A stretch of DNA of 64,000 bases from a virus (IMGVR_UViG_3300027851_000023:1331-65330), one strand, 5' to 3'; counted from the stretch's first letter, positions 440 through 62,172 are shown. Made by a program: numbers and translations. The notes: generated by a model from the letters alone, not told the origin.

Positions 440-1379
440 AGGTGTGTGTGTCGATCAGATCAGCAAGATCGTCTATCCGAGCAGTTCGTCCAGGTCCGTC
501 TCGTTCGCAGGCGACCACGGGGTCTTGTCCTCGGGGGTCTCCGCATCGCTCGACTCCGCGACCGCTGCTTGTAAGGCACGGAGCAACGGGATGGGTAACG
601 CCTTCCCCCGCTTCTCGGCTCGGCGGAGAATCCCGGCGCACGCCTTCGAACTCAAAAAGTATTGCGGCGGGATCGAACCCCTCACGAGCACTTGCGATAA
701 CGACGACACGACGGCGTCGTTGGGCCAAGCCGAAATATTGGGCGTCTCCGACTCGCCACGCGACTGCTCTTTCGGGTCCAAGCACAACACCAGCGTCCGC
801 CCACCGACCCCTTGGCGGTTCGAGCGGCACGTCTTCGCCGGCAAGAGCGCCAAGGAAGCAACCGAAGGCGTTATCCTTGGATGTGAGAACGCCCGGCACG
901 TTCTCCCAGTAGACGATGCAGGGGTCGTCGCCATGCTCGGCGCGTCGTTGGTCGATGGCATCAGCGAGATCCACAAATGAGAGAGTGAGTTGGCCACGGG
1001 CATCGCTCAGACCCTCGCGGCGACCGGCGACCGAGAATGCCTGACACGGCGTTCCGCCGCATAGCATCTCAGGTGCCTCGGCCAGTCCGGCGCGCACCAT
1101 GGCCGGCAGGACGGTGAAATCGCCGTAGTTGTTGATGCGATTGCCCCACTCGAGACGAGCGGCAGCCCTGATGGCGGCACGCCGCTCCTTGCGCACCTTT
1201 TCGTCGATGCCGACCTCATCAGGATCAAGAGGATGCAGTGGTGCAGTAGCCCCCAGCCGATAGGCAAGCACCTGCGAGGCCGCGACGTCGACCTCGGCAA
1301 GCCATGCAGCTTCCCACCCCAGGTCGTACCACGCGACAGAGGCGGCCTCGATACCTGAGCAAATTGACCCAAAACGCAA
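405..1379 (-). CDS. DNA cytosine-5 methyltransferase, catalytic part (motifs I-VIII)
   Basis: Motif I FGSICSGIEA, motif IV GGTPCQAFS, motif VI WENVPG, motif VIII QRRRRV; motifs IX/X not seen in this ORF. Confidence 0.92.
   Translation of the reverse strand: MRFGSICSGIEAASVAWYDLGWEAAWLAEVDVAASQVLAYRLGATAPLHPLDPDEVGIDEKVRKERRAAIRAAARLEWGNRINNYGDFTVLPAMVRAGLAEAPEMLCGGTPCQAFSVAGRREGLSDARGQLTLSFVDLADAIDQRRAEHGDDPCIVYWENVPGVLTSKDNAFGCFLGALAGEDVPLEPPRGRWADAGVVLGPERAVAWRVGDAQYFGLAQRRRRVVVIASAREGFDPAAILFEFEGVRRDSPPSREAGEGVTHPVAPCLTSSGRGVERCGDPRGQDPVVACERDGPGRTARIDDLADLIDTHTYARRHGGTVRL
473..1003 (-). CDS. Overlapping alternative-frame MTase small subunit (M.EcoHK31I beta-like)
   Basis: SLSQVL...PQYFLSSKACAGILRRAEKRGKALP..L..AL resembles the nested beta polypeptide of heterodimeric C5-MTases; ends in the DLDELLG tag. 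Start uncertain. Confidence 0.7.
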   Translation of the reverse strand: MPVANSLSHLWISLMPSTNDAPSMATTPASSTGRTCRAFSHPRITPSVASLALLPAKTCRSNRQGVGGRTLVLCLDPKEQSRGESETPNISAWPNDAVVSSLSQVLVRGSIPPQYFLSSKACAGILRRAEKRGKALPIPLLRALQAAVAESSDAETPEDKTPWSPANETDLDELLG

Positions 1380-1456
1380 GTTGGCGATCTCCGGTGTGAA
1401 CGGAGACCCTACGCACGTTCGGTGGGACTTTCAACCCGAATGTGATAGCCGAAGCC

Positions 1457-2173
1457 TTACAGGCGCTCGGTGAATGTCGTGATCGGCCGCAGATCCTTGG
1501 ATGCGGCGACCTCGGTGAAACCGCCCTTGCGCTTCCCGTTCGACAGGGCCTCAGCATCGATCTCGAACATGCTGACGGCCAGGTCGCCGGTTCTCACCAC
1601 GCCGATGACGAACGTATCCCCTGCACCATGGGGCACCGCGAAATGCCCATCCCTCTCCAGGGCGACGTGGAAGGCATACTGCGCGCCGCGGATGATCGCG
1701 TAGATGTCGATATGCTCACGGGCGGCCCTCTTGTCGCCCCGCTCAGGGAAAGCCGGGTTCCCGCCGCACATCTGAACGAAGCCTGCGACCACATTGACCA
1801 CGCCGTCCGCTTCGGCATTCCTGAGTTTCTGCTGGCGCGCGTCGATCTCGGGCGCGCGGCCCAGCGATAGCCATGCCTCGTCGACCTGCAGAATGATCGC
1901 AAGGGCCTTCATGGTTCCGTGCCGCGGGAGGCCCTGTCCGGCGAACCATTTGCGCACGGTCTCGGGCGTGGACTTGACTCCGTGCTTCTCGAGTTCAGTG
2001 ACGAACCACTTCAAGCGACCGAAGTTCGGCGGCGGAACATGCGGATTGCCGTCCGTCGCGGTCTGGAATCGCTTCGCGAAATCCTTGTGCGGATATGCCG
2101 TGGCCCGCTTGGGAGGGGCTGCTGGCTCGACGACCGCTGGGGAGGCGGTCGGCTTTCTGAATGGGGATTTCAT
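1457..2173 (-). CDS. XRE-like HTH transcriptional regulator, candidate repressor
   Basis: N-terminal HTH pattern ETVRKWFAG..PR...M..LA.IL.VDEAWL.LG; own upstream TTGACA near 2226-2231 overlapping an operator-like motif. Confidence 0.7.
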   Translation of the reverse strand: MKSPFRKPTASPAVVEPAAPPKRATAYPHKDFAKRFQTATDGNPHVPPPNFGRLKWFVTELEKHGVKSTPETVRKWFAGQGLPRHGTMKALAIILQVDEAWLSLGRAPEIDARQQKLRNAEADGVVNVVAGFVQMCGGNPAFPERGDKRAAREHIDIYAIIRGAQYAFHVALERDGHFAVPHGAGDTFVIGVVRTGDLAVSMFEIDAEALSNGKRKGGFTEVAASKDLRPITTFTERL

Positions 2174-2250
2174 TTTGGCGCTTCGCTGTGGATGACTTTC
2201 ACTTTTTGAATGACAAATGTCACTTTGTCAAACCGATTCGCGACTGCGTC

Positions 2251-3915
2251 TCAGGAGAGGATGTCAACCAAATCGCCACCGAATGAGACCTGCACTGCTT
2301 GCATGATTCGAACTTGCTCAGCGATCTTGGGGTCCAGGTATTTCGGGAAGACCTCGTCATCAATCGTCCCCTCAGCGATGATGACGTGATTGAACACCGG
2401 ATCGCGCCGGCCAGGGCGCAGCAGGCGCTTGAGGAACTGCAAATAGAGTTCGGCGTCCGACGTCAGGCCATATTCGCACATATGGCCTGTGCCCTTCTGC
2501 AGGTTCAGCCCGTGCCCGGCCGACGCCCGGTGTGCCAGCAGCAGCCCGATCCGATCAGCGTTCCAGTCGCGAGTGACTTTCACGGCGTTCTCGGGCCGCA
2601 TCAGCACGGCGTCAGGAAACGCCTTCATGATCCGCTCGGCGTCGAACTGATAAGTGTAGGCGACCAGGAGCGGCGTACCCTCAAGTCGCTCGACAAGCAG
2701 CTTCAGGGCCTCGATCTTGACGTCGTGAATCCAGACGTCGTCGCCGGCCTCGCGGTACATGGAGCCGTTCGCGAACTGCAACAGCTTGCCATGCAGGACA
2801 CCGCCGTTCACGGCCTCGACGTCGTATTCTTCGGAGACCATCTGCCGCTTGAAGCGCTTGTAACGATCGAGCACGGTAGCCGGCAGTTTCACGCGGATCG
2901 GATCGACGATGTAGGGTGGCAGCTGCGGCATGTCTTCGGGGTTGAGCGAGAACATGATGTCCTTCACCCGGCCCATGACCTCCCCGAAGCTATGCGCGTG
3001 CGGGATCGTCAGATGGCGGTCGCGATCAATGTTGAACCAGCGGTTCAGGAAATGCGTCTTCGCCGCGCCCAGTCGCTCGCCCAGATCGATCAGATAGATC
3101 AGGCCCCACATATTCTGCAGGCCCTTCGGCGTCGGTGTGCCGGTCAACTGGATCGTCGCCATCATCCGCTTGCGTGCCTGTGCCATGATGCCCCACCGAG
3201 AGAGCGGAGCGGGGCCCTTCTTCGGCTGGTTCTTGTCGCCCTTCTTCCGGCGCTTGCCTGATCGGCCTTCGCGACAGTCGTCGATGACCATCACGTCATA
3301 GGGCCAGTCACGCCCCTTGCGGAAATGCGCCCAGAGCCAATCGAGCCCTTCCTTGTTGATGATGTGTATCTCGGCGTCGGTGTTCGCGAGCGCGGCGAGT
3401 TTGGCGGCCTTCGCCGCGGCAATGGCCTCGAGACGATGAGGTTCCGCGCGCTCGCCGGGAGACTTTTTCAGGTTTGCCCGAGCCTTGGTTCGCGCCGAGC
3501 CTTTCGCGGCACCCAACATGATCTCGGACTGCCGCTCCAACTCGAACTCAGCCTGATAACGAGCCAGGGCCTCGGCGTAGGCAGCGTCGCCGGCCGCATT
3601 AACATCCGGGTCGTCGTCCTCGACGCGCAGCAGCTGCATCATATGGCGCAGCTGGGTCAGGTGCTCCCATTCGTCGGGCTCCTGCGGCCACACGGTCTGC
3701 GCGACAAGCAAGGGGGCGACGATGAGCACCTTTCGGATGACGAAGCCATTCAGCAGATCCAGGAGCGCCGTCAGGACGGTCACCGTCTTGCCCGCACCCG
3801 GCTCGAGCGCCAGCATCACACCCGGCAGGCGCTTCACATGGTCAGGATGGAAGCACTGCTTGATCTTACCCACGAAGAACCGCTGGAAGACGCGCAGATC
3901 GGCGCGGGTCAGCAT
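2251..3915 (-). CDS. SNF2-like superfamily 2 helicase
   Basis: Walker A PGAGKT, LIVAP, LTGTP, SAGHGLNLQ, RLLRPG; Chi-like position after VRR-NUC. Confidence 0.9.
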   Translation of the reverse strand: MLTRADLRVFQRFFVGKIKQCFHPDHVKRLPGVMLALEPGAGKTVTVLTALLDLLNGFVIRKVLIVAPLLVAQTVWPQEPDEWEHLTQLRHMMQLLRVEDDDPDVNAAGDAAYAEALARYQAEFELERQSEIMLGAAKGSARTKARANLKKSPGERAEPHRLEAIAAAKAAKLAALANTDAEIHIINKEGLDWLWAHFRKGRDWPYDVMVIDDCREGRSGKRRKKGDKNQPKKGPAPLSRWGIMAQARKRMMATIQLTGTPTPKGLQNMWGLIYLIDLGERLGAAKTHFLNRWFNIDRDRHLTIPHAHSFGEVMGRVKDIMFSLNPEDMPQLPPYIVDPIRVKLPATVLDRYKRFKRQMVSEEYDVEAVNGGVLHGKLLQFANGSMYREAGDDVWIHDVKIEALKLLVERLEGTPLLVAYTYQFDAERIMKAFPDAVLMRPENAVKVTRDWNADRIGLLLAHRASAGHGLNLQKGTGHMCEYGLTSDAELYLQFLKRLLRPGRRDPVFNHVIIAEGTIDDEVFPKYLDPKIAEQVRIMQAVQVSFGGDLVDILS

Positions 3916-4187
3916 AGCAAATCCGCGATGTCAGGATGTTCCGCCAAGGCTGCGAGAACGTCACCGTGGCAAGGCTTAGGAGCACAGAAGCATCCCAAGG
4001 TCTTTCCCCGTAGCGTAGCGATATCCGCCACGAGTTCAGGGCGATGAGCGAGATAGGTACGGTATTTCGCAATCACATCGCTTCGATCACCATCGACCCC
4101 GATGCGGAACGGATTTCCCCATTTTGACCCGCGCCCAATATAGACGTCGAACGGCGCCCGATCTTTATGAACGACCCTAGTCAGCAT
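3909..4187 (-). CDS. DUF4326 family protein
   Basis: VYIGRGSKWGNPF...LRGKTLGCFCAPKPCHGDVL; start placed at ATG 4187, coupled to the upstream stop. Confidence 0.85.
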   Translation of the reverse strand: MLTRVVHKDRAPFDVYIGRGSKWGNPFRIGVDGDRSDVIAKYRTYLAHRPELVADIATLRGKTLGCFCAPKPCHGDVLAALAEHPDIADLLC

Positions 4188-4465
4188 CAGCGGCGGGCCA
4201 GTCGATCCAGCAGCGCGATCCCGCGATCGAGGTCGTCGATCACATGGACCTTGAGCCCGGCGGCCGACATTCGGTCCCGTTCGCGAGACTGATGCGGGCA
4301 CAGTTTTCCGCCTGGGCGCTTGATCTCCATCATCACGACCTGGCCGTGGCCGTAGAAGTCGCGGTCCCGACAGCCGCGCCGACCGGCGTAAGTCATCTTC
4401 CGGCTGAACCACCCGGTCTTGTCGCCATGCTTGACGAGGCCGTCTTCGATCATCTGTTCACGCAC
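4187..4465 (-). CDS. VRR-NUC domain nuclease
   Basis: RE..IE, G..DR, MEIKRPGG...Q pattern; lies between polymerase and helicase. Confidence 0.85.
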   Translation of the reverse strand: MREQMIEDGLVKHGDKTGWFSRKMTYAGRRGCRDRDFYGHGQVVMMEIKRPGGKLCPHQSRERDRMSAAGLKVHVIDDLDRGIALLDRLARR

Positions 4466-4493
4466 TGAATGAATCTCCCGATAAAAGTGAAAC

Positions 4494-6464
4494 CTAGACC
4501 AGGGCCCATGCGATGAGGATGGGAAGGGTGTTCGCCTTGGTCATGCGGACGATCTTGGGGGGCCGGGCGAGATATCCCAGCGACATCAACATCTCCTTCG
4601 CCTCAGCGATGTAACGGTCGTAGTCGATGTCGTCGGGCAGTTGCTCAGGCAGCGTCATGCAGGGTGCCGCGCCTTCCGACTTCGGCACTTGTGGGTGCCT
4701 CCCCTTCACGTTCTGTTTGGCCTTGAGGATCGGGTCGCCGTCTGTCGACCAGTAGAACCGCACGGTCTTGCCGAGATACGAGCCGCGCCAGGTTGCCCCG
4801 CCGTCTGCTTTGATGACCGTAACGAACTGCGTGATGTCGGTGCAGCCGTAGATCGTATCGGCGAGCGGCGTGCCGTGCTTTAGCAGCGCCAGAACTGCGT
4901 CCGAGCAGATCGTCGCCGTTGGGTTCTTCATGAGCATCTTGCGCTCATCCCGGTCGCTCTTGTCGAGGTTCCAGGGGTTGCAGAAGATGCCGATGCGTTT
5001 GTGGCCACCGTTCGCTTTGATCGCGATGTAGTTGTTGACGTCGCGATTATAGACCGCAGCATATTCCGCGAACTCGAGACCGAATCCGGTCGCTTGCTCC
5101 CATTCGTCGGTAATGTTGGCCAAGTCGCTCGGCAGCAGCCGATCTTTCAGCGGACCCTCGGTGCCGACACCATCAAACATCTCGCGGGGGCAGCGGAACA
5201 GCACACCGTCCGTATTGCCGCTGATGACTTGAACGCCGGCCGCTTCGGCGCGCTCGATCAACATCAGAAGGGTCAGTTGTCCAGTTAGGGTGACGCCGAT
5301 AAGAAGATGCGGGGCGTAGAGTATTGAATATCGCGAACCAAGTTTGCCGTAGACGCCGTTCAGGGCGATCTTCATTCCCTTATCTTTGACCTTGTCGCCT
5401 GCTTTTTTGGCAGCGACCCGATCATCTTTGATCTTCTTGTAGACCGAGAGGAAATGATGACCGACGGCCTTCGGAAACAGGCCCAGTGCCATGATGATGC
5501 TCGGGTATTGTGATGTCACGTCGGCATCGATCAGGACGTAGTCCTCGTCGCTCTCGACCACGCGGCTTTTCTCAGTCGAGTGCAGGCCGCCGATGCCCAT
5601 CGAATAGACCGTGCTGCCGATGGTGACCTGGATGTCCTGAAGCCAGTCCGGCGACACAGTCTTGCCGTCAGCCCCGACGATGAACTCGGCGTCCCTGATG
5701 CGCTCGAGGATGGCTTGCAGTTTCGGCATATCGAAGCGGATGAAAGACGGAACCGGATAGCGGAAAGTCGTACCCGGCTTGGTCTCGACCTTCTGAAGCC
5801 GAGCACCTGTAAGTTTTTCGACCCGCTTCTTGACGATAGTTTCGCCGATCTGGCTGTCCGACTTGGACCGGAAATCCTGATCGTACTCAGCGCCGAGAGC
5901 CACCCGCAGTTCGAGCGGTTCCTTCAGGGCATCCCAAAGATTGTGCGTCGCGTCCAGGTCGGAGTTCAGGCAGTAGTCGGCGGTCGCGTCCATCTGTTCT
6001 TCGGTCAGGATCGTCTCGGGCGGATAAACCAGATCCTGCATACGCTTGCCGTGGAGTCGTCCGTTCAGCGTCTTCAGGCTCGCGATCGCGTTCGGCTGCG
6101 GCTCGATTAGGTCGATGTGGTCGAGCCGCGGCAGTTTGATCCCAAGCAGGTCTTCGGTCTGCCAGGAGCGCACCTTGCCGTTGATGATGGCGTCGACCTT
6201 TGCCTTGACCAGGGCGCAGACACGGGTCGCGTTCTCACCGCACTTCAGCAAATGGATCGCATAGTAGACGAGCGGGACGTCGAAACCGTTGCCGTTATAG
6301 GTGACGATGCGATTGTTGCGCATGATCTTGTCGATCCGGCGCCAGTCGAGGTCCGGCGATCGGGCGCTCAGTTCGAAGCCCACGCGATATCCGTCGCGCT
6401 CGCGTTTGAAAGCGACGTAGTAGAAGTTCTTGTAAGTCTCGATGTCGCAGAAAAGGACCGACAT
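4494..6464 (-). CDS. DNA polymerase, family B, with 3'-5' exonuclease
   Basis: Exo motifs DIET and YNG..FD; polymerase motifs DVTSQYPSI, KIALNGVYGK, NTDG. Confidence 0.9.
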   Translation of the reverse strand: MSVLFCDIETYKNFYYVAFKRERDGYRVGFELSARSPDLDWRRIDKIMRNNRIVTYNGNGFDVPLVYYAIHLLKCGENATRVCALVKAKVDAIINGKVRSWQTEDLLGIKLPRLDHIDLIEPQPNAIASLKTLNGRLHGKRMQDLVYPPETILTEEQMDATADYCLNSDLDATHNLWDALKEPLELRVALGAEYDQDFRSKSDSQIGETIVKKRVEKLTGARLQKVETKPGTTFRYPVPSFIRFDMPKLQAILERIRDAEFIVGADGKTVSPDWLQDIQVTIGSTVYSMGIGGLHSTEKSRVVESDEDYVLIDADVTSQYPSIIMALGLFPKAVGHHFLSVYKKIKDDRVAAKKAGDKVKDKGMKIALNGVYGKLGSRYSILYAPHLLIGVTLTGQLTLLMLIERAEAAGVQVISGNTDGVLFRCPREMFDGVGTEGPLKDRLLPSDLANITDEWEQATGFGLEFAEYAAVYNRDVNNYIAIKANGGHKRIGIFCNPWNLDKSDRDERKMLMKNPTATICSDAVLALLKHGTPLADTIYGCTDITQFVTVIKADGGATWRGSYLGKTVRFYWSTDGDPILKAKQNVKGRHPQVPKSEGAAPCMTLPEQLPDDIDYDRYIAEAKEMLMSLGYLARPPKIVRMTKANTLPILIAWALV

Positions 6465-6628
6465 CAGAACCTTTCGCCGGCCTTCTTCGGGACCAGCGGC
6501 ATACCGACTTCCTCGCGACGCTTCACGAACCGTGCCAAGGCTTCAGCAGATTTGCGTGTCTGCTCAGCACGCCACACGGGGTCGGCGGCACGGGCGGCGC
6601 AGATTTCGGGCGTGTCCTGGTCGATCAT
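6464..6628 (-). CDS. Hypothetical protein (54 aa)
   Basis: ATG 6628 after a purine-rich leader; stop overlaps the polymerase start (TGATG). Confidence 0.5.
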   Translation of the reverse strand: MIDQDTPEICAARAADPVWRAEQTRKSAEALARFVKRREEVGMPLVPKKAGERF

Positions 6629-6637
6629 CGTTCTTCT

Positions 6638-6791
6638 CGGGCGGTTAGGGTGCGAGTCGCGGACTTGTGCGAGGGAAGGACAACAGGGCTTTCGAGGCTC
6701 GCCTGCCATCGTCTAGCGTCGGGGCCCGGTATTCGTCGCGCCATGCTGATGCGCCACTACTAGCCGGCACGACTCGCAGCCAAACCGCCCG
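6638..6791 (-). ncRNA. Candidate structured RNA
   Basis: Arms 6638-6661 and 6768-6791 form a ~24-bp stem with 2 mismatches enclosing ~106 nt; intergenic. Confidence 0.35.
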
Positions 6792-6819
6792 GCTGCTTCA
6801 GCGGCCGGGCGACCGGGTG

Positions 6820-7527
6820 TTATGCCAGCAGGTCGTCGTCTTCGGTGACACTGCCCGAGGACGTGTCGACGTCGTCCAGGCCGTCGTCATCTTCTTCGTC
6901 AAGGTAGTCTTCGGCGTTGACCTGCCCGGCCCCGAAGGCGTCGCCGTGACGCTTGAACTTCACAACTTCCAGGGTGCAGGACACCCGGTTCTTGTGGTTC
7001 TTCTTGGAACCGTCGTATGCCCAGATCGACACGACGATGTCGTAAAAAGCGCCCGAGTAGAACAGTTCCTCGGCAGCCGATCCCTTCAGGCGAGGGAACT
7101 TTCCGTCGGCACCCTTGCGGGGACCGAGCAGTTGGACAGGATTCTTCTTCTCTTCTTCCCAGTCCTCGATCGAAACGCCATTGCTGGCCTTCAGGACGTA
7201 CATGCCCTCGTAGCCTTCATACAGGGGCTCGCGCTCGCCGGAATCTTCGTCCTTGGGCTCACCGTCGACGAAGCAGCGCTCCGTCGAGGGGATTTTCTTG
7301 TTCTGGCCCGGCCAGCGCGCCTCGATCGCCTTCTTCATCGCCGCAGCGATTTCCTCGGCAACAGGATTCTTGGCGCCGCCCACTTCCTTCGGAACCAGGA
7401 AGTTGCCGTTGAAGACGTAGCCGGTCAACTTGTCGTCGTCGTTCTTCCGCTCCTGGGGTTTGATCAGGTGCAGGAAGGAGCCGCGCACATCCTTGAGGGT
7501 GAGGCGAATGTTCTTTTGGTCTGCCAT
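6820..7527 (-). CDS. ssb: Single-stranded DNA-binding protein (DUF2815-like)
   Basis: VRGSFLHL, FYSGAF, AYD...NRVSCTL..V.F...GDAFG and an acidic tail; alternative start at 7560. Confidence 0.8.
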   Translation of the reverse strand: MADQKNIRLTLKDVRGSFLHLIKPQERKNDDDKLTGYVFNGNFLVPKEVGGAKNPVAEEIAAAMKKAIEARWPGQNKKIPSTERCFVDGEPKDEDSGEREPLYEGYEGMYVLKASNGVSIEDWEEEKKNPVQLLGPRKGADGKFPRLKGSAAEELFYSGAFYDIVVSIWAYDGSKKNHKNRVSCTLEVVKFKRHGDAFGAGQVNAEDYLDEEDDDGLDDVDTSSGSVTEDDDLLA

Positions 7528-7549
7528 GTCGGTCTCTCGGTTTCCGGTT

Positions 7550-8743
7550 TCAGTCGTCATCTAGGAGGTCATCGAACGGCGTGATTGCCGGCCGATCGTC
7601 GGTGTCCGGCACAAGGATGGGTTTGCCCGCATCCTGTGTGACGAGACGGTCCAGGGCCGACAGAACATCGGGATTCCCTGGCTTCTTTCGCCCAGGCTTC
7701 AATAGCTTTTCAACCTGAGAAACGGAAAGCACTTTTCGCGTGAAAGCATCGTCGCCAAGAACGGGCTCAAGCAGTTCCTCGACTGCCTGCTCATCCGTGT
7801 AACGACGGTTGCCACGTCGCCCGAGCACGAGTTTGGAACCTGGGTCTGGTGACCCAGCTTTCGCCGCAGCGATGCTGTCTTCATGAAGTTTGGCGAACCA
7901 CTGCTCGACCAGGTGCGAATGACGCACAATCCACCATCGGCGCTCCGGCGTGATTCTGGCCCTCGCCGGTAACTGCGGTTCTGATGCGATATCGTCATCC
8001 AGGTCGAGACCTGAGATTTCAATGATCCAGTCCTGCCTGGCTTCGCAGTCCCACTTAGCCGGACAAAAGCCGCACTGCTTGTCCCCCGGCACGAACGGAG
8101 CGGCGGGATCATCAACACGCAGCGCGGCGGCTTTGACCTCATGCGCAAACGCCAACAGTTCCTCGGTCGTTTGCGTCCAGAACTTCATGCCGCCCGCTCG
8201 CGGCTGATCGATGACCAGTACGATCTCATCGACGTCGTCCCATAGGTCGAAGTTATCAAGAACACCGATACCGTAGATGCGAAGCTGGCGAGTGCCGATC
8301 GCATCAACAGGGACGCCCGCCCCGTACTTCAAATCATCAATGATCGCTCGACGCCGCATTCTCTGGATGATCGCCGTGTCCAGCGTCCCGAACTGCCCAG
8401 GCATCCAGCGTCCGAGGTCTACGCGGTGTTCGACGATGACATCGCCCGGCTGATCGTTGACCCAGTCCATGCCCGGCTGAAGGTGTGCCGCCATTTCTTC
8501 ATCGCAGAGGTAGTCGACCCCATTGATGGTCTGCTTCGTCCCGATGAAATCCCACGCGTCCAAACCCAGTTCCAGGGCGTCACCGCGGATCTGGTGGGCC
8601 GCAGTGCCTTCGTCCGCCGCGCCCGACGAACTGCGTGGGTCAATCTTGCCATCGGCAGTCAACCGTTCGATCAGGCGAACAGACGCAGCGCAGACCATCC
8701 ATCGGTCTGCGCTAGAGGGTCCAAGGCGAGCGTGGGCTGCCAT
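7550..8743 (-). CDS. DUF2800 / Cas4-like PD-(D/E)XK exonuclease
   Basis: HARLGPSSADRWMVC, EGTAAH, FGTLD, DLKYGAG, QLRIY, C.FCPA...C. Confidence 0.88.
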   Translation of the reverse strand: MAAHARLGPSSADRWMVCAASVRLIERLTADGKIDPRSSSGAADEGTAAHQIRGDALELGLDAWDFIGTKQTINGVDYLCDEEMAAHLQPGMDWVNDQPGDVIVEHRVDLGRWMPGQFGTLDTAIIQRMRRRAIIDDLKYGAGVPVDAIGTRQLRIYGIGVLDNFDLWDDVDEIVLVIDQPRAGGMKFWTQTTEELLAFAHEVKAAALRVDDPAAPFVPGDKQCGFCPAKWDCEARQDWIIEISGLDLDDDIASEPQLPARARITPERRWWIVRHSHLVEQWFAKLHEDSIAAAKAGSPDPGSKLVLGRRGNRRYTDEQAVEELLEPVLGDDAFTRKVLSVSQVEKLLKPGRKKPGNPDVLSALDRLVTQDAGKPILVPDTDDRPAITPFDDLLDDD

Positions 8744-9014: not shown

Positions 9015-9032
9015 ACGATCTGAGCGTCTACT

Positions 9033-9165: not shown

Positions 9166-9612
9166 TCAGTTCAGCAGATCGTCGTCCTCGGGGTCCGCCG
9201 TCTCGGTCTGGATCAGGTTGCCAGCGGCAATCAACTTCTCCATCGTCCGCACGACGACGTCGGTCTTGTCGGCCGGGATCTCGGACAGTTTGGTCGCGCC
9301 GACCTTGCCGAAGATTTCCTGGACCTTGGCCTTCCGGGCATCGCGCTCGGCACCCTCGATTCCGTCCAGATAGGAGACGATCGCGGCGCTGACCGGATTT
9401 TCCTTGGGGGCATCGGCCTTCTCGGTAGCGGCCGGTTTGTCGTCGGACTTCTCGGCCGGCTTCTTGGCGGCGGCGGGCTTGGTCGAAGCGCCCTTGGCGA
9501 CTTCCAGGACCGCGGCGCGGCCTTCGTTGCCCGCCTCGACGGCGGCCGTCAGGGCGATGTTGGAGGCGGTGGTGCGATCGAGAGCGGCGATCAGATTGGC
9601 GATATCGGACAT
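9166..9612 (-). CDS. Ala/Lys-rich hypothetical protein of the replication module
   Basis: GGAGA RBS before ATG 9612; typical position upstream of DUF2800; ends EDDDLLN. Confidence 0.75.
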   Translation of the reverse strand: MSDIANLIAALDRTTASNIALTAAVEAGNEGRAAVLEVAKGASTKPAAAKKPAEKSDDKPAATEKADAPKENPVSAAIVSYLDGIEGAERDARKAKVQEIFGKVGATKLSEIPADKTDVVVRTMEKLIAAGNLIQTETADPEDDDLLN

Positions 9613-54054: not shown

Positions 54055-54093
54055 GATGTGTTTATCCCATCAAAAGTGAAAGATTGGCGCGGC

Positions 54094-54516: not shown

Positions 54517-54552
54517 GGTGGTCGTTCCTTATTCGAGAGGGATGATCGGGGG

Positions 54553-55863
54553 TTAGGCGGCCTTGGGACGCTTGTGACCGCGCAGGGCGAAGACGGAGTC
54601 GGCCTTGGAAGCCTTCTCACCGTTGCCGTCGTCGCCTTCACCGCCTTCGCCCAGGTTGGGGTTTTCAGTGCGGTTCATGGCATCCGCGAAAGCGTTGCCC
54701 ACGCCGGCACCGGAAGCCTGGGGAGCGGCCTCGGTGGGCAGGTCGGCGAGAACGGCGGTCGTTGATTCGGCATCCATGCCGCCCTTCAGGGCCAGCGACA
54801 GGGCGGCCTTCGGACGATCCTTGGCTTCGTCCGATGCCAGAATGGCGCTGATGCGGGCACGCTCGGCGGTTGCGCCTTCGGTGCGAGCGGCGGCCAGGGC
54901 CGTCGCGTGGTCGGCAGTGGCCTTGGCCACGGCGCTGTCGATGTCGGCCTGGGTGAGATCGGCCATGGTCTCGTCTCCTTCTTGAGGGTTGAGGCTGGCC
55001 GAGAAGTCAGCCAGGGCGTCGTCGAACGGGCCGATCTTGTCAGCCAGTCCGATCGACAGTGCTTCCGGGGCGCTGTAGGTCAGGGCTTCGGTGTCCCGAA
55101 CCGCCTGCTCATCCAGTCCCCTATTCCGCGCCACGCAGGCGACGAAAATGCTGTAGATGTCGTCGATGCGCGCCTGGATGCGCGCCTTCACGTCGTCGGG
55201 CAGGGCGGCGTACGGATTGCCGTCGACCTTGTGCTTGCCGGCGTAGATGAAGGTGATCGAATATCCGGCCTGCTCCATCGCCTTCGACACGTCGAAGTGG
55301 GACGTGACGACGCCAACCGATCCGACGCCGCCTGTGCGGCTGACCGTGACCTCATCGGACGTGCTGATGATCGAGTATCCAGCCGAATAGGCGCTCTCAT
55401 GCGCGTAGCCGCGCACGGGTTTGCGGTTCGGATAGTCCCGCATCTTGTCGCAGAGTTCGAAGTTGCCCGCGACCATGCCGCCGGGCGTGTCGCAGACCAG
55501 GGCGATCCCCTTCACTTCGGGGTCGCGCTGACCACGCTCGAACGCGCGCCAGATGTATTGATACCCGGTCGCCCAGGAACCGAAGTTGTAGGAGAAGTCG
55601 TTCAGCAGAACGCCCTTCACCGGGATCAGCAGAACGCCGTCCTTGACGACATAGGGACGGTAGGCCGCGCGCCAGTCGTCCGGCGCGAACCAGAAGCCGT
55701 CCGTATCCATCTTCGGCTGATCGGTGGCGGCGTCGATCCGCGACTGGATCTGCGACGCCTGCTGCAGACACGCAGCGAACATCAGTTGCGCTTCGGGTGC
55801 GACCAGGACGGGCTCGTTGTTCTGGAAGCGAGCGGCGAAGGGGTTGGCGTTGGTCAGGCTCAC
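54553..55863 (-). CDS. Head maturation protease (S49) with scaffold C-terminus
   Basis: DTPGG, AYSAGY, GSVGVV, AGKHKVDGNPY. Confidence 0.9.
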   Translation of the reverse strand: MSLTNANPFAARFQNNEPVLVAPEAQLMFAACLQQASQIQSRIDAATDQPKMDTDGFWFAPDDWRAAYRPYVVKDGVLLIPVKGVLLNDFSYNFGSWATGYQYIWRAFERGQRDPEVKGIALVCDTPGGMVAGNFELCDKMRDYPNRKPVRGYAHESAYSAGYSIISTSDEVTVSRTGGVGSVGVVTSHFDVSKAMEQAGYSITFIYAGKHKVDGNPYAALPDDVKARIQARIDDIYSIFVACVARNRGLDEQAVRDTEALTYSAPEALSIGLADKIGPFDDALADFSASLNPQEGDETMADLTQADIDSAVAKATADHATALAAARTEGATAERARISAILASDEAKDRPKAALSLALKGGMDAESTTAVLADLPTEAAPQASGAGVGNAFADAMNRTENPNLGEGGEGDDGNGEKASKADSVFALRGHKRPKAA

Positions 55864-57524
55864 GATTCACGCTCCTGCGGTGTGCCGCTGAGGGCGTTCT
55901 CGGCGTCGCTCATGGCCATGGAGAAGACCGACGGAATATCGAGTTCAGAGTCGTTCGCCATCTCGCGAGCGATCTGACGCGAGACCATTCGCCAGTCGCC
56001 GCCATGAAGACGCGCGATGACGTTTTCCTTGGTGTTCAGCCCGTTCTTGAGTTGCAGCACGAGGGCCTGCGTCTCTTTCAGGGGTTCGATCAGACCTGCG
56101 CCCGCGCCGATCCAGTCGCAGTTCGAATAGGCTTCGGCGTTCAGGCCCTCGTAGAAGGACGGGACCACGCGACGCTTCAACGTCTCGAGTTGGTTGGCGT
56201 TGATCTGTTCTTCCAGCCACAGGCGATAGGCGAAGTTGGCCGTGCGATCGGCCACGCGTTTCTTGCGCGACGCCAGGTGCTTCTCGGTCTCGCCGCGGCT
56301 GGCGCGGGCTGACGAATAGTTCGTCTGGCTGTAGTCGCGCGAAAGCTGCTCGTAGCTGACGTTCAGCGCCGAGGCGACGTAGCGCAGCACTGACTGCTCG
56401 AACTTGTCGCCTGCCGGGCTCTCGGCACCGGGGTTCTTCAGGTTCAGCTTCGTGCCGGGCATGAAGACCGGTATCTTCACGCCATCGATCGTCAGGTTCT
56501 TGGACGCACCGGAGTATTCCTGGATCGCGGCCAGATACTCGCGCATCCACTCGATCGAGGGGTTCGCAGACTGGTCGTTCCCGCCCATCGAACGGAAAAT
56601 GTCGGCGGCCGGCAGTTCGGATTCGATGCTGGCGGCGTAGGTGGCGGCCAGGACGGCGCGCTGAAGTTCAACCTTGCGGAAGCCTTTCAGCATCTTCATC
56701 TCGGACAGGGCCGCTGCCATGCCGCTGATGCCGCGCGACTGGTCCGGCCGCATCTGCTCGTAGATGTGCAGGATCTGCGGGCGACCCCAGGGCTTGCGGG
56801 CCATGACCCGCTTCCAGATGTAGGATTGCGGGTTGGTGAAGTCGGAGGGATGGCCCATCCGAATGTGGTAGGCGATCGGCGCACCGCGCATGTCGCGCTC
56901 GACGCCGCGGCGAATCTTGTTGGACCGCCACTGATTGAACGGATTGCTCAGACGATCCGTGTCGACCATCTGGATCGCCGTGCGGCAGGGACGGCCGTCG
57001 TTCGGCATCCATTCCGCCGAGGCCAGCACTTCGCCGCCCGCCAGGTCTACGCCCACGGCCAGTCGGACGATGTCGGTCAGGGTCTTGACGCGCTGCGCGT
57101 CCAGCCAGCACTCGGGGCTCTCGGCCGTCAGGTGGAAGCGGGTCTCGACTTCCTCCTGGTATTCTTCTTCCCAGACCGGATCGCGCTTGCCGAACAGCAC
57201 CGCCGACATCGGCTTGGCGTTTAGCAGATAGGTCGCGCCGACGATGTTGTCCTTGTGCAGCGTGCTCGCGCCCTGGATATGGGCGTCGTTCCGCAGCATG
57301 TCGCGCACACGGGCATCGACGGTCGGCTTCTCGGGCAGGATTTCGGCGTCGGCCGAACGGATCGACGGCGCCCACAGCGCCAACTGGTCGAAGGTGCTCG
57401 AGCCCTCATAGGCCGCATCGCCCCCCACCGCGACCGCCGACACGGCGGGGGGCGCGACTGCATCGACCAGGGCGGGGGAGGCACCGGTGTCGAGCAGTTC
57501 TGCAAGGTCCGACGGAATATCCAT
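55860..57524 (-). CDS. Portal protein, lambda family
   Basis: RPDQSRG, YEQLSRDYSQTNYSSARA, IEPLKE. Confidence 0.92.
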   Translation of the reverse strand: MDIPSDLAELLDTGASPALVDAVAPPAVSAVAVGGDAAYEGSSTFDQLALWAPSIRSADAEILPEKPTVDARVRDMLRNDAHIQGASTLHKDNIVGATYLLNAKPMSAVLFGKRDPVWEEEYQEEVETRFHLTAESPECWLDAQRVKTLTDIVRLAVGVDLAGGEVLASAEWMPNDGRPCRTAIQMVDTDRLSNPFNQWRSNKIRRGVERDMRGAPIAYHIRMGHPSDFTNPQSYIWKRVMARKPWGRPQILHIYEQMRPDQSRGISGMAAALSEMKMLKGFRKVELQRAVLAATYAASIESELPAADIFRSMGGNDQSANPSIEWMREYLAAIQEYSGASKNLTIDGVKIPVFMPGTKLNLKNPGAESPAGDKFEQSVLRYVASALNVSYEQLSRDYSQTNYSSARASRGETEKHLASRKKRVADRTANFAYRLWLEEQINANQLETLKRRVVPSFYEGLNAEAYSNCDWIGAGAGLIEPLKETQALVLQLKNGLNTKENVIARLHGGDWRMVSRQIAREMANDSELDIPSVFSMAMSDAENALSGTPQERES

Positions 57525-57736: not shown

Positions 57737-57831
57737 GCGCGGATGGGCCCTCGGGGAAATCCCGACACCCTATTACGCCGCAAACGCTACAACTTTCAAG
57801 TCAAACGCGACTTTCTACTTTCTATTGAAAG

Positions 57832-59955
57832 TCAGGTCAAGTCTTTGGCCAGGTCGGCGAAAGACTTCCTGGGCTTCGCGGGCTCGATCAGACCGGCGGT
57901 TGCCTTGGGATCGAAGACCATGTCGTTCTCATCCCAGGGTGCGGCCCAGGACGGCGGTTTATCCCAGTCGATCCGATCCCAGCGGAAGACGACCCAGGGG
58001 GCGTTTGTCGCGATGTCCGGCGGACGGATGGCGACCGCGACGGCATAGTAGGCCAGATCCCACGCTTCGTTGCGGCGCTGGCGTGGGTTTTCCCAGCCCT
58101 TCGCCGTACGGATTTCGGTCGTCATCTGCGCGTAGAACCACTCGGGCATCCACTTCGGATAGCGCAGCATCCCGCCGCCCGGCTCGGCCTGATCGACACG
58201 GCGCGCGAGCATCAGGTCCACAGTGTCTTTCAGGCCATTCGACTGCAGCCGCAGCACCGGCACGTCACCACGCACCGGGCTATCCTTGTCCTTATGCTGC
58301 TGGTCCGGCCAGGAGACGGCGGTGCGCGGGGCCTTGGGCGATCCGTCGCCCTTCAGCAGAAGCACGCGGCGGTGCAGACCCTCGCCGCCGTCCCGCAGGC
58401 GTCGCCACCAGGCATAGGCGTTCGTGGTGAAACCCTCGCGGCCGGCACTGTCCGAGCCTGTCGCGCGGATCGACATCATCCGCCCGGTCGCGTCGTCCAC
58501 GGGATAGGACTTGCGAACCACTTCCTCGGTGATCCGGTCCCAGTCCTCGGCATAGGCGGCGGGATTGATCATCTCGCGTTCACCGTCGGCGTTCAGGCGG
58601 GCCGAGCGGGTGATCTTGAAACCGTCGATGACGACGATGTCCTTCTCGGCCGTGAAGCCGTGAACCTGGACGACGAACGCCCGCGCCTGAACGTCTACGG
58701 TCGCGATCAGGAAGCGGACCCCGCGAGGCACGGTCGGGCTGTCTTCGGTCGAACCCCAGTCCTCGGCCCTGTTCTTCATGTCTTCCGGCGCCCGCTCCGA
58801 CAGCCGCGACTTGGCGATATAGAACTCGCCCTGGTCGGTCGTGATCGTCTTGCGCAGCGGCAGTTCGTCCCCGGTGTCATCGTATTCCTGCTCGGCACGC
58901 AGGTAGTTGAGCACGATCTTGTCCCAGTCCTGGAAGATCGCAGCGGGCCCCTTCATCCAGAACGAAGCGATGTCGGAGCGGGCCACACGCTCCCCGTTGA
59001 TCTGGACGATGTCTCGGCTCTCGGGACGCCAGACCATGCCGTCCTTGACCCACCGACCGCCGCTGTTCAGTTCTTCCTTATGGCCCGGAACCATGTCGAA
59101 CTGGCAGTGTGGGCACCGCAGCGTGACCATCTCGGCCGCTTCCATGTGGTCGGTGCTCTTGGGATAGTTGAACAGTTTGAAAGACGGCTCGAAACTGGCG
59201 TGGCAGGAGGGACATTCCCAGTACCAGCGCCGCCTGTCGCCGCGGTTGTAGAGCGAGAAGATGCCCTTGATCGGCGGGGCCTCATGAGGCGTTTTCGGAC
59301 GCCACTTGGGATCGGCGATTTCCTTGTCCGGGTTGGGTGAGGACTCGGCCACGGTCATGCGGAAGCGCTTGAACGATTCGCCGCGCTTGTCGGTCAGGTC
59401 GAACGCGTTGCCTTCACCGTCGATGTTATCTTCGATCCGGTCGTAGTCCATGATGAAGTTGATGCGGACAGTCTTGCCGGACAGGTTGGTCGCCGTCGGC
59501 CAGCTGATGATCAGGTTCATCCCCGAGATGAACGCCTTGTCGAAGGTGTTGTCGTTCTGCCGGCCGGGCTTCAGCAGGGCGCCGATTTCCTTGCTGTCCC
59601 GCAGCATCTTGCCCAGTTCGCGTTTCGACCAGTCCCGCCCCGTGTGTTGGGTCATGTGAACGATCTGCAGGTCAGTCGGGTCGGTCTTGGCCGTGTGGGC
59701 GACCAGGTTGAGCGCCATCTGGGATTTCAGCGAGCGGGCCGGGCCGACGAAGATGACGCCTGTGAAATCCAGGCTCGTCATCAGTTCCTGCGGCTCGACG
59801 ATGTAGGGAGCCTTCTTCTCGGACCAGTAGCCGACGTAAGACCCAGGTTGGCGGATGAAGACATACTTCTTCGCCGCCTCGACGACGTTCAGCCGCTCGT
59901 TGGGCCGAGCCGCTTCGAAGGTCTGGGCGACCATTTGCTCGATCGAGGCGAACAT
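57832..59955 (-). CDS. terL: Terminase large subunit (GpA family)
   Basis: GPARSLKS, DYDR, ESSP, GDRRRWYWECPSC, ATVDVQ, RNEAWDL. Confidence 0.92.
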   Translation of the reverse strand: MFASIEQMVAQTFEAARPNERLNVVEAAKKYVFIRQPGSYVGYWSEKKAPYIVEPQELMTSLDFTGVIFVGPARSLKSQMALNLVAHTAKTDPTDLQIVHMTQHTGRDWSKRELGKMLRDSKEIGALLKPGRQNDNTFDKAFISGMNLIISWPTATNLSGKTVRINFIMDYDRIEDNIDGEGNAFDLTDKRGESFKRFRMTVAESSPNPDKEIADPKWRPKTPHEAPPIKGIFSLYNRGDRRRWYWECPSCHASFEPSFKLFNYPKSTDHMEAAEMVTLRCPHCQFDMVPGHKEELNSGGRWVKDGMVWRPESRDIVQINGERVARSDIASFWMKGPAAIFQDWDKIVLNYLRAEQEYDDTGDELPLRKTITTDQGEFYIAKSRLSERAPEDMKNRAEDWGSTEDSPTVPRGVRFLIATVDVQARAFVVQVHGFTAEKDIVVIDGFKITRSARLNADGEREMINPAAYAEDWDRITEEVVRKSYPVDDATGRMMSIRATGSDSAGREGFTTNAYAWWRRLRDGGEGLHRRVLLLKGDGSPKAPRTAVSWPDQQHKDKDSPVRGDVPVLRLQSNGLKDTVDLMLARRVDQAEPGGGMLRYPKWMPEWFYAQMTTEIRTAKGWENPRQRRNEAWDLAYYAVAVAIRPPDIATNAPWVVFRWDRIDWDKPPSWAAPWDENDMVFDPKATAGLIEPAKPRKSFADLAKDLT

Positions 59956-60716
59956 CAGGCGAGCATGTCTTCCAGGTCGTCGCCATCATCATAGTCACCG
60001 ATGGCGTCGAGTTCGTTCTGCTCGATCTCACCGTCCAGTTCGGTGATCGTGCTCTGGGTCCGCCGCTTCCTGGGCATCTTGATCAGTTTCTTGGTGATCT
60101 CATCCTGCAGATCGGAAACGCTGGCGGTCAGCGCCTCGTATTGCTCGGCAGTCATCATGTCCTTGCCGGGCAGGTTCTCGATCCAAAGCTGCATGGCGTC
60201 CTTCATGGTCATGGCCACGTCGCCCAGGACCGCGAGCACGTCTTCGTCCTTCCAGGTGTGCCGGGCGCGTTCTTCCCACCGCTGCTTGGCCAGTTTGGCG
60301 TCCCAGAACATCTTGTTCAGGTGCGGGGGGATGTTGTTGCCGTTCAGGCTCGACAGGTAGTCCATCAGGTCCACCTTCGGGGGGACCAGATAGGAGGCGG
60401 CCGTGACGAAGTCCCACAGAGGGACCGGGCGGTTCTGGTGCGTGCCCCATTCCATGACCGGGCACTTCCGAAGCGCCTTGTGGATCGCCCGCTGCTCCTT
60501 GCGGAACACATCGGCCAGGAACTTCACGCCGACCGGGCGATAGAACATCCCCTTGTCCGGCAGTTCGATCTTGCCGTCAGCCTCGCCAGCCGCCCGAGCC
60601 GCGATCTTGGCAGCCGCTTCCTCTCGCGTCGGTCGACCCCGACGACCCTTCACGGGCACGATCGTCTTCGAAACGACGTCGGTATCGATGTCTAGAAAGT
60701 CCAGGTCGTCGATCAT
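59955..60716 (-). CDS. terS: Terminase small subunit (DUF1441-like)
   Basis: Coupled upstream of terL; PP.L.K.FWD......WE......W motif. Confidence 0.75.
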   Translation of the reverse strand: MIDDLDFLDIDTDVVSKTIVPVKGRRGRPTREEAAAKIAARAAGEADGKIELPDKGMFYRPVGVKFLADVFRKEQRAIHKALRKCPVMEWGTHQNRPVPLWDFVTAASYLVPPKVDLMDYLSSLNGNNIPPHLNKMFWDAKLAKQRWEERARHTWKDEDVLAVLGDVAMTMKDAMQLWIENLPGKDMMTAEQYEALTASVSDLQDEITKKLIKMPRKRRTQSTITELDGEIEQNELDAIGDYDDGDDLEDMLA

Positions 60717-60916
60717 CCCAGGATCTCCGACAGGTCGGACGGATAGCCCAGGACGGCGGCGACCCAGGCATCAATCTCTGCTTCGGCCCAGACCGTGACT
60801 CGGCTGCTGAGTTTGCGCCGGGCCGGAAAATCGCCCCGCTTCTCTCGCCGATAGATTTCCGTTTTCGACAGCCCGGTCTTCGACTTGACGGCGGGGAGAC
60901 GAAGCAGGCCGGGCAT
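60713..60916 (-). CDS. alpA: AlpA-family regulator / excisionase
   Basis: LLRLPAVKSKTGLSKTEIYR....GDFP..RKLS.R...W...EI..W. Confidence 0.9.
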   Translation of the reverse strand: MPGLLRLPAVKSKTGLSKTEIYRREKRGDFPARRKLSSRVTVWAEAEIDAWVAAVLGYPSDLSEILG

Positions 60917-60987
60917 CTGTGGTTCTCACTGGGTCAAACGAGACCTAGCGGATAATCACTTCTAATGTGAAAGACAACCCGGAAAGT

Positions 60988-62172
60988 TCACCCGAGCAGG
61001 TCGGCCAGGTCGTCCTGACGAAGAAGCCACGCGGAATACCATTCCATCATCGCGCGCCGCTGCGGCATCCAGCGGGCGTTGTTGTAGGCGCTGCGGACCT
61101 TGTTGGAAGGAACGTGGGCTAACTGGCGCTCGATCCAGTCCTCCTGAAAGAGCGTGCTTTCGTTCAGCACGGTCGAGGCCAGAGAGCGGAACCCGTGAAT
61201 GGTCGCGCGATGATGATAGCCCATTCGATAGAGCGCGTAGAGCATGGTGTTCTCAGAAATCGGTTTGCCCCGCACGCCGGGCAGAACCCAGTGACTGTCG
61301 CCGGCAATGACCTTGAGTTGGGCAAGCAGTCCCTGGACATGAGGCGTCAGCGGAACGATGTGCTCCCGGCCCATCTTCATCCGTTCGGCCGGCACCCGCC
61401 AGATGTCCTTTTCGATCTCGGACCACTGCGCCATTCGCATCTCACTGGTGCGAACGAAGGTGTGCATCACGACCTCGACGGCAAGACGGGTCTGCTTTTC
61501 ACCGTCATAGGCGCGCAGTTTGATCAGGAACTCAGGAACGTCTGCGACCTTCAAACTGGCCTGGTGCTGGACCCTGGGCGCGGGCTTCAGCGCACCGACC
61601 AGATCCGCGGCCGGATTGCGCTGCGCCTTGCCGCACGCGATGGCGTAGCCGAAAATCTGACTGACGTTCTGCAGGGACCGCTTGGCCATGTCGATCGCCC
61701 CGCGGCCTTCGACCTTTCGAATGGCCGCCAGAACGTCTTGGGCACCGATGTCTTCGATCGGCGACTCGCCCAGGTCAGGGAAGACGTCGCGCTCGAGCCG
61801 ACGCCGCACGCGTTCAAAGTGCGGGAGGGCCCATCGCACCTTCATGCCATCCAGCCATTCGTCGGCGACGGCCTGAAAGGTCGGTCGGTTGTCCGGGGCC
61901 TGCTCCGCAACCGCCTTGGCCCTCGGTGACGGGTCTTTGCCGTCAGCCAGTTCCTTCCGCGCGGCTGCCCGTCGTTCGCGGGCCTCGGCCAACATGACGT
62001 CGGGGTAGGCACCCAGGCTGATCGTCTTCTGCCTGCCCTCGAACCGATAGGACAGGCGCCAGAGCCGGGCACCGTTGGGCTGGACCAGTAGGTGCATCCC
62101 CGCGCCGTCGGTCATTTTGTAGGCGGTCGCTCGGCCACGGGCGTTCTTGCAGGCGGTGTCGGTCAGCGGCAT
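60988..62172 (-). CDS. int: Tyrosine integrase, P4-like
   Basis: Arm-binding N-terminus (YKMTDGAGM.L.V.P.G...W), VRTSE, RMKM..EH.VPL, HGFR, QLAH, AYN. Confidence 0.93.
   Translation of the reverse strand: MPLTDTACKNARGRATAYKMTDGAGMHLLVQPNGARLWRLSYRFEGRQKTISLGAYPDVMLAEARERRAAARKELADGKDPSPRAKAVAEQAPDNRPTFQAVADEWLDGMKVRWALPHFERVRRRLERDVFPDLGESPIEDIGAQDVLAAIRKVEGRGAIDMAKRSLQNVSQIFGYAIACGKAQRNPAADLVGALKPAPRVQHQASLKVADVPEFLIKLRAYDGEKQTRLAVEVVMHTFVRTSEMRMAQWSEIEKDIWRVPAERMKMGREHIVPLTPHVQGLLAQLKVIAGDSHWVLPGVRGKPISENTMLYALYRMGYHHRATIHGFRSLASTVLNESTLFQEDWIERQLAHVPSNKVRSAYNNARWMPQRRAMMEWYSAWLLRQDDLADLLG

Follow-up and report, generated by a model that had tools for sequence, protein, structure and literature searches.

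Unrelated proteins encoded in a 64,000-nucleotide stretch of viral DNA (the window; bases 1331-65330 of the 65,330-bp virus record IMGVR_UViG_3300027851_000023) carry variants of one short acidic peptide, usually as the last residues of the protein. This peptide tag is real, strongly non-random and conserved. Judging from sequence, its enrichment, the selection acting on it at the peptide level, its conservation, its freedom of position and its co-variation among carriers indicate that it most likely docks its carriers on a single partner that co-evolves with them. Feature coordinates are window positions unless marked as genome positions. The protein set comprises the 91 products of our own codon-model gene call on the whole record, which was edited by hand and is heuristic outside annotated records.

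Enrichment and conservation of the tag

Thirteen of the 91 proteins end in [DE][LIM][LF]x followed by the stop, against 0.24 expected from the internal rate of the pattern (49 in 18,776 positions; binomial P ~4e-19), and 5000 shuffles of the residues gave a mean of 0.19 such ends and a maximum of 3. A shared C-terminal tag had been claimed in an earlier note on this DNA, together with the proposal to set motif frequency against shuffled composition; the comparison bears the claim out, and the expectation of 0.24 and the shuffle maximum of 3, against the 13 seen, rule out chance or composition as the cause. The long form D[LI]x[DE][LIM][LF]x-stop occurs in 9 of the 91 proteins, where an internal rate of 3 in 18,503 predicts 0.01. 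Adding the tail FDDLLDDD of a nuclease to the 13 pattern matches gives 14 C-terminal copies, one of them outside the window. These tails fall beyond the Pfam domain limits and end as L-L-[AGSNCL]; the penultimate residue is L or F in 13/13, a terminal F, W or Y is found in 0/13, and Q stands at the first position of 0/14 tags. Additional copies are located at the N-termini of GapR, the portal and the small terminase subunit TerS, in the linker of the primase, and upstream of the terminal copy in an N6/N4 DNA methylase.

Conservation of the tag resides in the peptide. At identical tag residues the same codon was used in 120 of 271 pairwise comparisons, 127.6 being expected from the codon usage of the genome, and the DNA 3' of the stops of tagged genes is unrelated between copies. 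A DNA repeat, or conservation at the DNA level, is ruled out as the cause by this lack of a shared-codon excess and by the unconserved downstream DNA, as the earlier note had maintained. It had also dismissed a ribosome-binding-site constraint, and rightly so: only 7 of the 14 tagged genes overlap the next start and the other 7 have no coupled downstream start, which rules out a translational coupling signal.

The closest cultured relatives of the phage are the R. capsulatus RcD-cluster phages, with about 71-75% nucleotide identity in the portal gene. RcRios has homologues for 35 of the 91 proteins; the closest complete relative, G007, shares 63% identity in the large terminase TerL; and integrase P0002 of a sister phage, on a 65,679-bp contig, is 78% identical. 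A megablast search with the window matched only the P1 dmt gene and the RcD portal/terminase region. As single-protein queries, TerL retrieved no relatives from genome contigs and TerS none from viral contigs, the polymerase recovered 3 loci from viral contigs, and a tblastn search of phages with the protein that binds single-stranded DNA (SSB) gave 5 distant records. A TerL profile yielded 80 IMG/VR loci, 57 of which, being at least 12 kb long, were analysed; together with RcRios and the phage studied here they make up the 59 loci referred to below.

In RcRios, 9 of 93 proteins end in [LA][LIF][VI]-stop (expected 0.34, P 9e-11), a form shown by 0/91 proteins of our phage; tagged orthologues there include a methylase, the integrase, the SSB, GapR and the protein encoded next after the capsid gene, at the position of lambda FI. 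Neither DLL- nor LLV-type tags were found in the unrelated phages RcTitan (0/60) and RcCronus (0/45) of the RcRios host. By eye, 8 of 96 G007 proteins end in DDLLG, EDLLG, DDLGL, EDMGL or similar, and this set includes the three-gene block that follows ctrA in our phage. The tag also switches ends between orthologues: that of GapR is N-terminal here and C-terminal in RcRios, where the protein ends in ENALLV, and that of the Cas4-like nuclease is C-terminal here and N-terminal (DDLLDDD) in G007.

Across the 59 loci the tails of SSB, the Cas4-like nuclease and TerS share a lineage-specific cap within each locus, DDEV in the Chi-like group and DDDL, DDEL, DDLGI or DLLV elsewhere. Of 47 loci, 42 give the FI-position protein a tail that is acidic and capped; comparison of its final residue with those of TerS, SSB and the nuclease showed identity in 48 of 69 cases (shuffles: mean 19.3, maximum 38, 0/5000 reaching 48). 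The T7-type SSB, the Cas4-like nuclease, TerS and the FI-position protein are near-constant carriers among relatives. On the temperate branch, TerS and portal both start with a tag peptide (e.g. DLSDLLG) in 17 phages, and the best 6-mer identity between the two N-termini averages 4.41 within phages (n=17) versus 3.36 across them (n=272), a value reached by 0/5000 permutations. The paired peptides read RY[SA]DVLG in L101, FDDLFG in L104 and EF[DA]D[IV]LG in L105. The core inference of the earlier note, a peptide selected for a common receptor, gains from these relatives, in which the tag is kept, moves between termini and shifts its form in step within each lineage. Findings beyond that note are the pairing of N-terminal copies between TerS and portal, the tail found universally at the FI position and the movement of the tag between orthologue ends, and so are the setting aside of CtrA and of the present polymerase as general readers and the finding that the integrase tail was inherited, not added.

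Carriers of the tag and the origin of their tails

The record has a G+C content of 62%, and Pfam and PHROGs delineate two modules in it. The lambda-type head module comprises, by Pfam, TerS, a gpA-type TerL, gpW, a lambda-family portal (portal_2), an S49 protease, a gpD-like decoration protein and a gpE-like capsid protein. The Enc34/Chi-type replication module holds the DUF2800/Cas4-like nuclease, the T7 gp2.5-type SSB, a VRR-NUC-like protein, an SNF2 helicase, a primase-polymerase/VapE protein and a family-B-like polymerase whose PDB matches are weak. Further genes encode a P4-type integrase, AlpA, GapR, a full CtrA, two to three DNA methylases and ThyA.

On the minus strand, the tag closes the SNF2-type helicase (gene 2251-3915; GDLVDILS, 2254-2277), the DUF4326 protein (gene 3909-4187; PDIADLLC, 3912-3935), the T7 gp2.5/Enc34-type SSB (gene 6820-7560; TEDDDLLA, 6823-6846), which matches Pfam Enc34_ssDNA-bd over residues 20-226 of 246 (E 1.6e-17), and the DUF2800/Cas4-like nuclease (gene 7550-8743; FDDLLDDD, 7553-7576). 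On the same strand a 148-aa protein of no assigned function (gene 9166-9612) ends in PEDDDLLN (9169-9192), its positional counterpart in G007 ending in DDDLGL. The plus-strand primase-polymerase (gene 10104-12686) has an internal DLEDLFG at residue 326 (11079-11099), in the linker between PriCT_2 (239-315) and VapE (534-757).

The remaining plus-strand carriers start with GapR (gene 26779-27120), in which DEDLLGDL (residues 3-10; 26785-26808) precedes the GapR domain (residues 40-111). Three small proteins without assigned function are tagged at the C-terminus: one of 116 aa (gene 28084-28434; EDLDDLLA, 28408-28431), one of 87 aa (gene 28434-28697; KDIEDLLS, 28671-28694), whose G007 homologue ends in DDEEDLLG, and one of 141 aa (gene 28978-29403; GDLDDLLA, 29377-29400). 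They are followed by the N6/N4 DNA methylase (gene 29400-30437), with an internal ADLRDLLD at residue 323 and a terminal DDLADLFL (together 30366-30434), both past its Pfam domain (24-308).

All carriers of the head module and of the integration region lie on the minus strand. The 130-aa FI-position protein, encoded next after the major capsid gene (gene 52520-52912), ends in SGENDLLA (52523-52546), and the portal (gene 55860-57524) displays SDLAELLD at residues 5-12 (57489-57512), within a predicted disordered arm (residues 1-42, predicted local distance difference test score, pLDDT, <50). TerS (gene 59955-60716) has a C-terminal DDLEDMLA (59958-59981) and an N-terminal IDDLDFLD (residues 2-9; 60690-60713), AlpA/excisionase (gene 60713-60916) ends in SDLSEILG (60716-60739) and the P4-type integrase (gene 60988-62172) in DDLADLLG (60991-61014). 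Just outside the window, a YpsA/SLOG-like protein (genome 143-652, minus strand) ends in EDVRDLLG. The three N-terminal copies on GapR, portal and TerS had been listed in the earlier note and are confirmed.

Its list of 14 C-terminal tails needs one correction: all are present at their stops and 13 end plausible genes, but TDLDELLG (476-499, minus strand) closes open reading frame (ORF) 473-1003, in an alternative frame. Since this ORF overlaps in another frame ORF 405-1379 (minus strand), which resembles P1 Dmt, the sequence comparison indicates that TDLDELLG is probably not translated and thus probably no real protein end. ORF 405-1379 shows 47% identity to P1 Dmt residues 1-246 and a Pfam DNA_methylase match; the alignment backs its frame, not that of ORF 473-1003, to at least position 603, and Pfam gave no match for the last 95 residues of ORF 473-1003. 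The C5-methylase N-terminal fragment encoded by ORF 405-1379 has its own DDLADLID (447-470, minus strand), 17 residues ahead of the stop. This C5 cytosine methylase is split, with motifs up to VIII in ORF 405-1379, motifs IX-X in an upstream ORF at window positions -681 to 194 (genome 649-1524), and small ORFs between them.

The origin of the tails differs between carriers, so that the earlier view of a tag appended even to imported genes stands for DUF4326 and fails for the P4-type integrase. Sequence comparison indicates that the DUF4326 tail was added: the domain usually stops 2-6 residues past CHGDVLAxLA, the phage protein has a 9-residue extension, and 3 of the 120 best homologues match the tail loosely. 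Among the 120 best integrase homologues, 37 match the tail expression and by eye about 20 more have a DL[ST]DLL tail followed by one or two extra residues; tagged homologues come from Mesorhizobium, Cereibacter, Paracoccus and other sources. In 80 integrase loci from GTDB genomes the residues that follow the conserved WW[SA]DYL helix differ by lineage, reading DL[ST]DLL in Rhodobacterales, GA[DE]V[IV]P[LF]xxxxA in beta- and gammaproteobacteria and NIAVLRAA in Sphingomonadales, and being missing in Planctomycetes; by eye, DL[ST]DLL was found in 0/40 loci read as non-alphaproteobacterial. The islands beside tagged Rhodobacterales integrases are unrelated to each other and otherwise untagged. An AlphaFold2 model (120-row alignment, mean pLDDT 94) places the tail at the end of an ordered helix, residues 366-393, with pLDDT ~97. 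From these alignments the integrase tail was not appended by the phage studied here and is widespread in alphaproteobacterial integrases; the comparison with non-phage homologues that the earlier note had suggested goes against it here, the tail being present also on integrases of unrelated Rhodobacterales islands.

Some other genes have sequence features of their own. The large terminase of lambda gpA type (57832-59955, minus strand; GpA_ATPase 41-302, GpA_nuclease 329-642), our leading candidate for the reader, has a C-terminus (57832-57900, minus strand) that is conserved throughout the family (59 related loci) with the consensus Y-[DS]-F-[AS]-x-L-[AG]-x-x-L-[AG]-stop, SFADLAKDLT here, and that by analogy with lambda would be a portal-binding tail. 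A second, hydrophobic tail is seen on the family-B polymerase (4494-6464, minus strand), LPILIAWALV here and LALILALAA in RcRios; in L004 the polymerase ends in LLLWGLAA and two other proteins in DLWALVA and MLFALAA, and in G007 it ends in WLLVAAVMD and an adjoining 200-aa protein in WLLIAAIMD. In many loci a family of 183-aa neck/tail proteins (50484-51035, minus strand) has yet another conserved C-terminal peptide, E-D-x-x-x-P-F-[AGLV]-stop, for instance AEDVEQPFA in our phage and AENLETPFA in others. Thymidylate synthase (21248-22660, plus strand) contains, according to Pfam, an I-HmuI NUMOD-like endonuclease segment inserted in frame.

Candidate readers of the tag

The form of the tag changes in step across proteins, and it is therefore highly probable that a single, co-evolving reader exists. 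As to its identity, we lean tentatively, from lambda biology, to the gpA-type large terminase (57832-59955) or the packaging motor, because the partners of lambda gpA (the Nu1 C-terminus, FI and the portal) are exactly the three packaging proteins that are tagged here. The binding of gpA to these three is reported in PMC3224144, and gpFI is described as bridging the capsid and the terminase-DNA complex (PMC13595911). The tag would be a short linear motif for docking: a mini-helix, acidic and amphipathic, with the core [DE]-Phi-Phi and the long form D-[LI]-x-[DE]-[LIM]-[LF], placed on flexible N- or C-terminal arms or on linkers. Through it, a phage lineage with a lambda-type head and Chi/RcD-like relatives would connect many proteins of DNA handling and packaging to a single reader that co-evolves with them. 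On the motor, docking would bring together TerS, the FI-like factor and the portal, and it would draw SSB, nuclease, helicase, methylases and recombination proteins to the DNA under maturation or packaging, competition for a single site imposing an ordered hand-off. The phage studied here has extended the motif to about 15 proteins, among them the helicase, methylases, integrase, AlpA, GapR, DUF4326, the SLOG protein and the three small post-ctrA proteins. It is possible, if somewhat more doubtful, that the packaging motor (gpA-type terminase or portal vertex) is a hub in which a single groove links packaging with replication, recombination, methylation, integration/excision and nucleoid proteins, with a private code in each lineage. 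In a bolder variant, some tagged enzymes may enter the capsid and be delivered with the DNA.

Several considerations weigh against this scheme. Shared ancestry of the loci inflates all co-variation tests, and many of the 59 loci are fragments reaching about 10 kb to each side of TerL in which gene calls are heuristic; that many proteins change together remains the point despite the shared ancestry. Integrases of unrelated Rhodobacterales islands without a terminase carry the same tail, and this copy therefore works without TerL or is a separate feature. According to PMC3224144, a 22-residue leader of the lambda portal is removed during maturation; if the leader is cleaved here too, the portal copy would act before packaging. 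Nor is it obvious why SSB, integrase or methylases should bind terminase. A predicted complex of TerL (44-row alignment) with TerS (28 rows), run without controls, reached 0.29 and 0.14, the mark being 0.32, and counts neither way. Scanning the phage proteins with Pfam and PHROGs revealed no clamp or other obvious hub, for a 355-aa protein (17690-18757) the ESM Atlas offers nothing but unnamed look-alikes, and no homologue of the RcTitan 'processivity factor' was found in our phage.

Less probably, the tag copies the phage's own SSB tail in a T7-like replisome, being read by the SSB OB-fold groove, the family-B polymerase or the helicase/primase, and draws packaging and recombination proteins to replicating DNA. 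The constant tail carrier SSB belongs indeed to the Enc34/T7 gp2.5 family, and helicase, nuclease and primase of our phage are tagged. In the account given in PMC5686142, the acidic C-terminal segment of the Enc34 SSB crystal lies in the beta-sheet groove of a neighbour and buries 842 square angstroms, contacts in T7 gp2.5 are similar, and the T7 gp2.5 tail is cited as binding polymerase and primase-helicase; within that account the groove is the sole reader-like contact seen experimentally for the SSB family, although the last 11 residues of Enc34 SSB, cap included, are invisible in the crystal. The present polymerase type turned up in 1 of 5 related records, and 0/3 of the complete or near-complete (at least 90%) Chi-like records with DDEV tags had it. 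Replisome docking also leaves unexplained that, SSB and Cas4 apart, the tag is carried most constantly by TerS, the FI-position protein and the portal.

We accord the same modest chance to a host hub, in which the tag would bind a conserved alphaproteobacterial protein such as the beta sliding clamp and place phage proteins on host machinery. Such a target fits the distribution of DL[ST]DLL: P4-type integrases end in it in many genomes of Rhodobacterales and Rhizobiales whose islands share no other genes, and it is missing from the 40 loci read by eye as non-alphaproteobacterial. Clamp-binding peptides typically work at the N-terminus, at the C-terminus and in linkers, and phage Mu has recently been reported to use the clamp. 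However, the Q that opens the canonical clamp motif stands at the start of none of the tags; RcCronus and RcTitan carry canonical-looking clamp tails but no DLL or LLV tags; and in a complete Tabrizicola genome no gene ends in D-L-x-[DE]-L-L-x-stop, the single match to the pattern ending in TGG (a control pattern had 4 matches). The fine co-variation of TerS and portal among related phages fits a fast-evolving phage reader better than a host hub.

A degradation or processing signal, read by host ClpXP or Lon or by the phage S49 prohead protease so as to time or trim its carriers, is far less probable. The tails finish with two leucines and a small residue (LLA, LLG, LLS), which loosely resembles the C-terminal LAA of the ssrA tag, and excisionases and integrases are classic proteolysis targets; cleavage of the lambda portal leader (PMC3224144) points the same way. 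The existence of N-terminal and internal copies, the presence among the carriers of SSB and packaging factors that are needed in quantity, and the caps that follow long acidic runs in related lineages (V, L, I or GL), which are unlike known ClpX motifs, speak against it. Marginally less probable again is the absence of any common reader, each tail working within the protein or oligomer that bears it, be it as an autoinhibitory DNA mimic or as a swapped arm. The confidently predicted helix that the integrase tail completes would suit such a role, and acidic SSB tails are reported, in work cited by PMC5686142, to fold back on their own DNA-binding surface; however, convergence of unrelated folds on a single peptide, with joint changes in each lineage, would not be expected, and the tag moves between the two ends of orthologues.

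Docking on the receiver of the phage CtrA or of a host protein, as CheZ and FliM peptides dock on CheY, is the least credible reading and CtrA an unlikely general reader, for although the CtrA of our phage is complete, with Response_reg (3-109) and Trans_reg_C, and is followed by the three tagged small genes, the receiver family PF00072 is missing from RcRios and 4 complete tag-bearing relatives (0/5; the same search finds it in 12 of 14 control genomes) and the CtrA-like protein of RcRios has a DNA-binding domain only, so that the earlier suggestion of CtrA as reader is not supported as a general mechanism.

Comparison with known systems and biological meaning

Our literature searches, supplements aside, found no publication on a proteome-wide tag of this kind, in line with the earlier note, whose author knew of none. 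The nearest precedent, and a clear one, is the pair of T7 gp2.5/gp4 tails; the SSB tip, clamp motifs and lambda contacts share some features with the tag, and none of these matches its sequence or scope. In T7, too, an SSB of the same type and a helicase share an acidic, hydrophobic-ended tail on a disordered segment, which docks on gp5 (PMC5686142). In both systems a number of proteins seem to share a single docking logic. The T7 tail on helicase/primase is matched here by GDLVDILS of the SNF2 helicase and DLEDLFG of the primase linker. The T7 tails end in an aromatic residue, whereas the tags end in Leu-Leu plus a small residue; carriers here number about 15, including terminase, portal, integrase, excisionase, methylases and GapR, with copies also at N-termini and in linkers; and in T7 the reader is the polymerase, the polymerase of our phage not being conserved across its tag-bearing relatives.

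The bacterial SSB tip DDDIPF, a hub signal for DNA-metabolism proteins, likewise consists of an acidic run and a hydrophobic tip at the extreme C-terminus, but it is one carrier with many readers, whereas here many carriers probably share one reader. Tails of the DDEIPF type are found in RcTitan, RcCronus and L005, on other proteins, and not in our phage. In RcCronus a methylase ends in GQASLFDL, a 61-aa protein in NQPSLF and the SSB in DDEIPF; in RcTitan the polymerase ends in SASLF and the annotated processivity factor in DDEIPF. Sliding-clamp motifs are similar in being short, placed at a terminus or in a linker, and common to many DNA-acting proteins, for which the clamp is said to be a tool-belt ring. 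They read QL[SD]LF or QLxLxL in bacteria and include the C-terminal tails that bind T4 gp45 and the PIP boxes; the tag differs in the lack of Q at position 1 (0/14), and no clamp gene was found here by Pfam or PHROGs. An ssrA-like ClpX degron is strictly C-terminal and ends in Ala-Ala, in contrast to the tag with its penultimate L or F in 13/13 and its N-terminal and linker copies. A likeness to the CheY-binding peptides of the CheZ C-terminus and the FliM N-terminus was put forward in the earlier note, and these peptides differ from the tag in that a receiver domain does not co-occur with it (PF00072, 0/5).

With lambda, our phage shares the order and families of the head genes, and its three tagged packaging proteins match the three gpA partners described in PMC3224144; that the tag binds TerL would follow by analogy. 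Within the cleaved lambda portal leader, the stretch TIPTLLGPDG is similar to the DLLG peptides. To our knowledge, no shared peptide has been described in lambda, and its replication and recombination proteins are not known to use the packaging contacts. Leu-Leu peptides are present at the ends of head proteins of lambda itself: in the stretch 1-8000 of phage lambda, the cleaved 22-residue portal leader starts MKTPTIPTLLGPDG, the C-terminus of Nu1 reads LDELIPGLLSEYIEQSG and that of C/Nu3 reads DAVNDLLNTPV.

If about 15 unrelated proteins are indeed directed to a single partner by one peptide, a layer of the infection would exist that is invisible to gene annotation, and a tag of 6-8 residues would provide a handle for pulling down the hub. 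It would also help to explain how replication, recombination and packaging are coupled in the large group of lambda-headed, Chi/RcD-like phages, in which the lineage-specific versions of the tag may act as a barrier or a compatibility code in the exchange of modules between phages.

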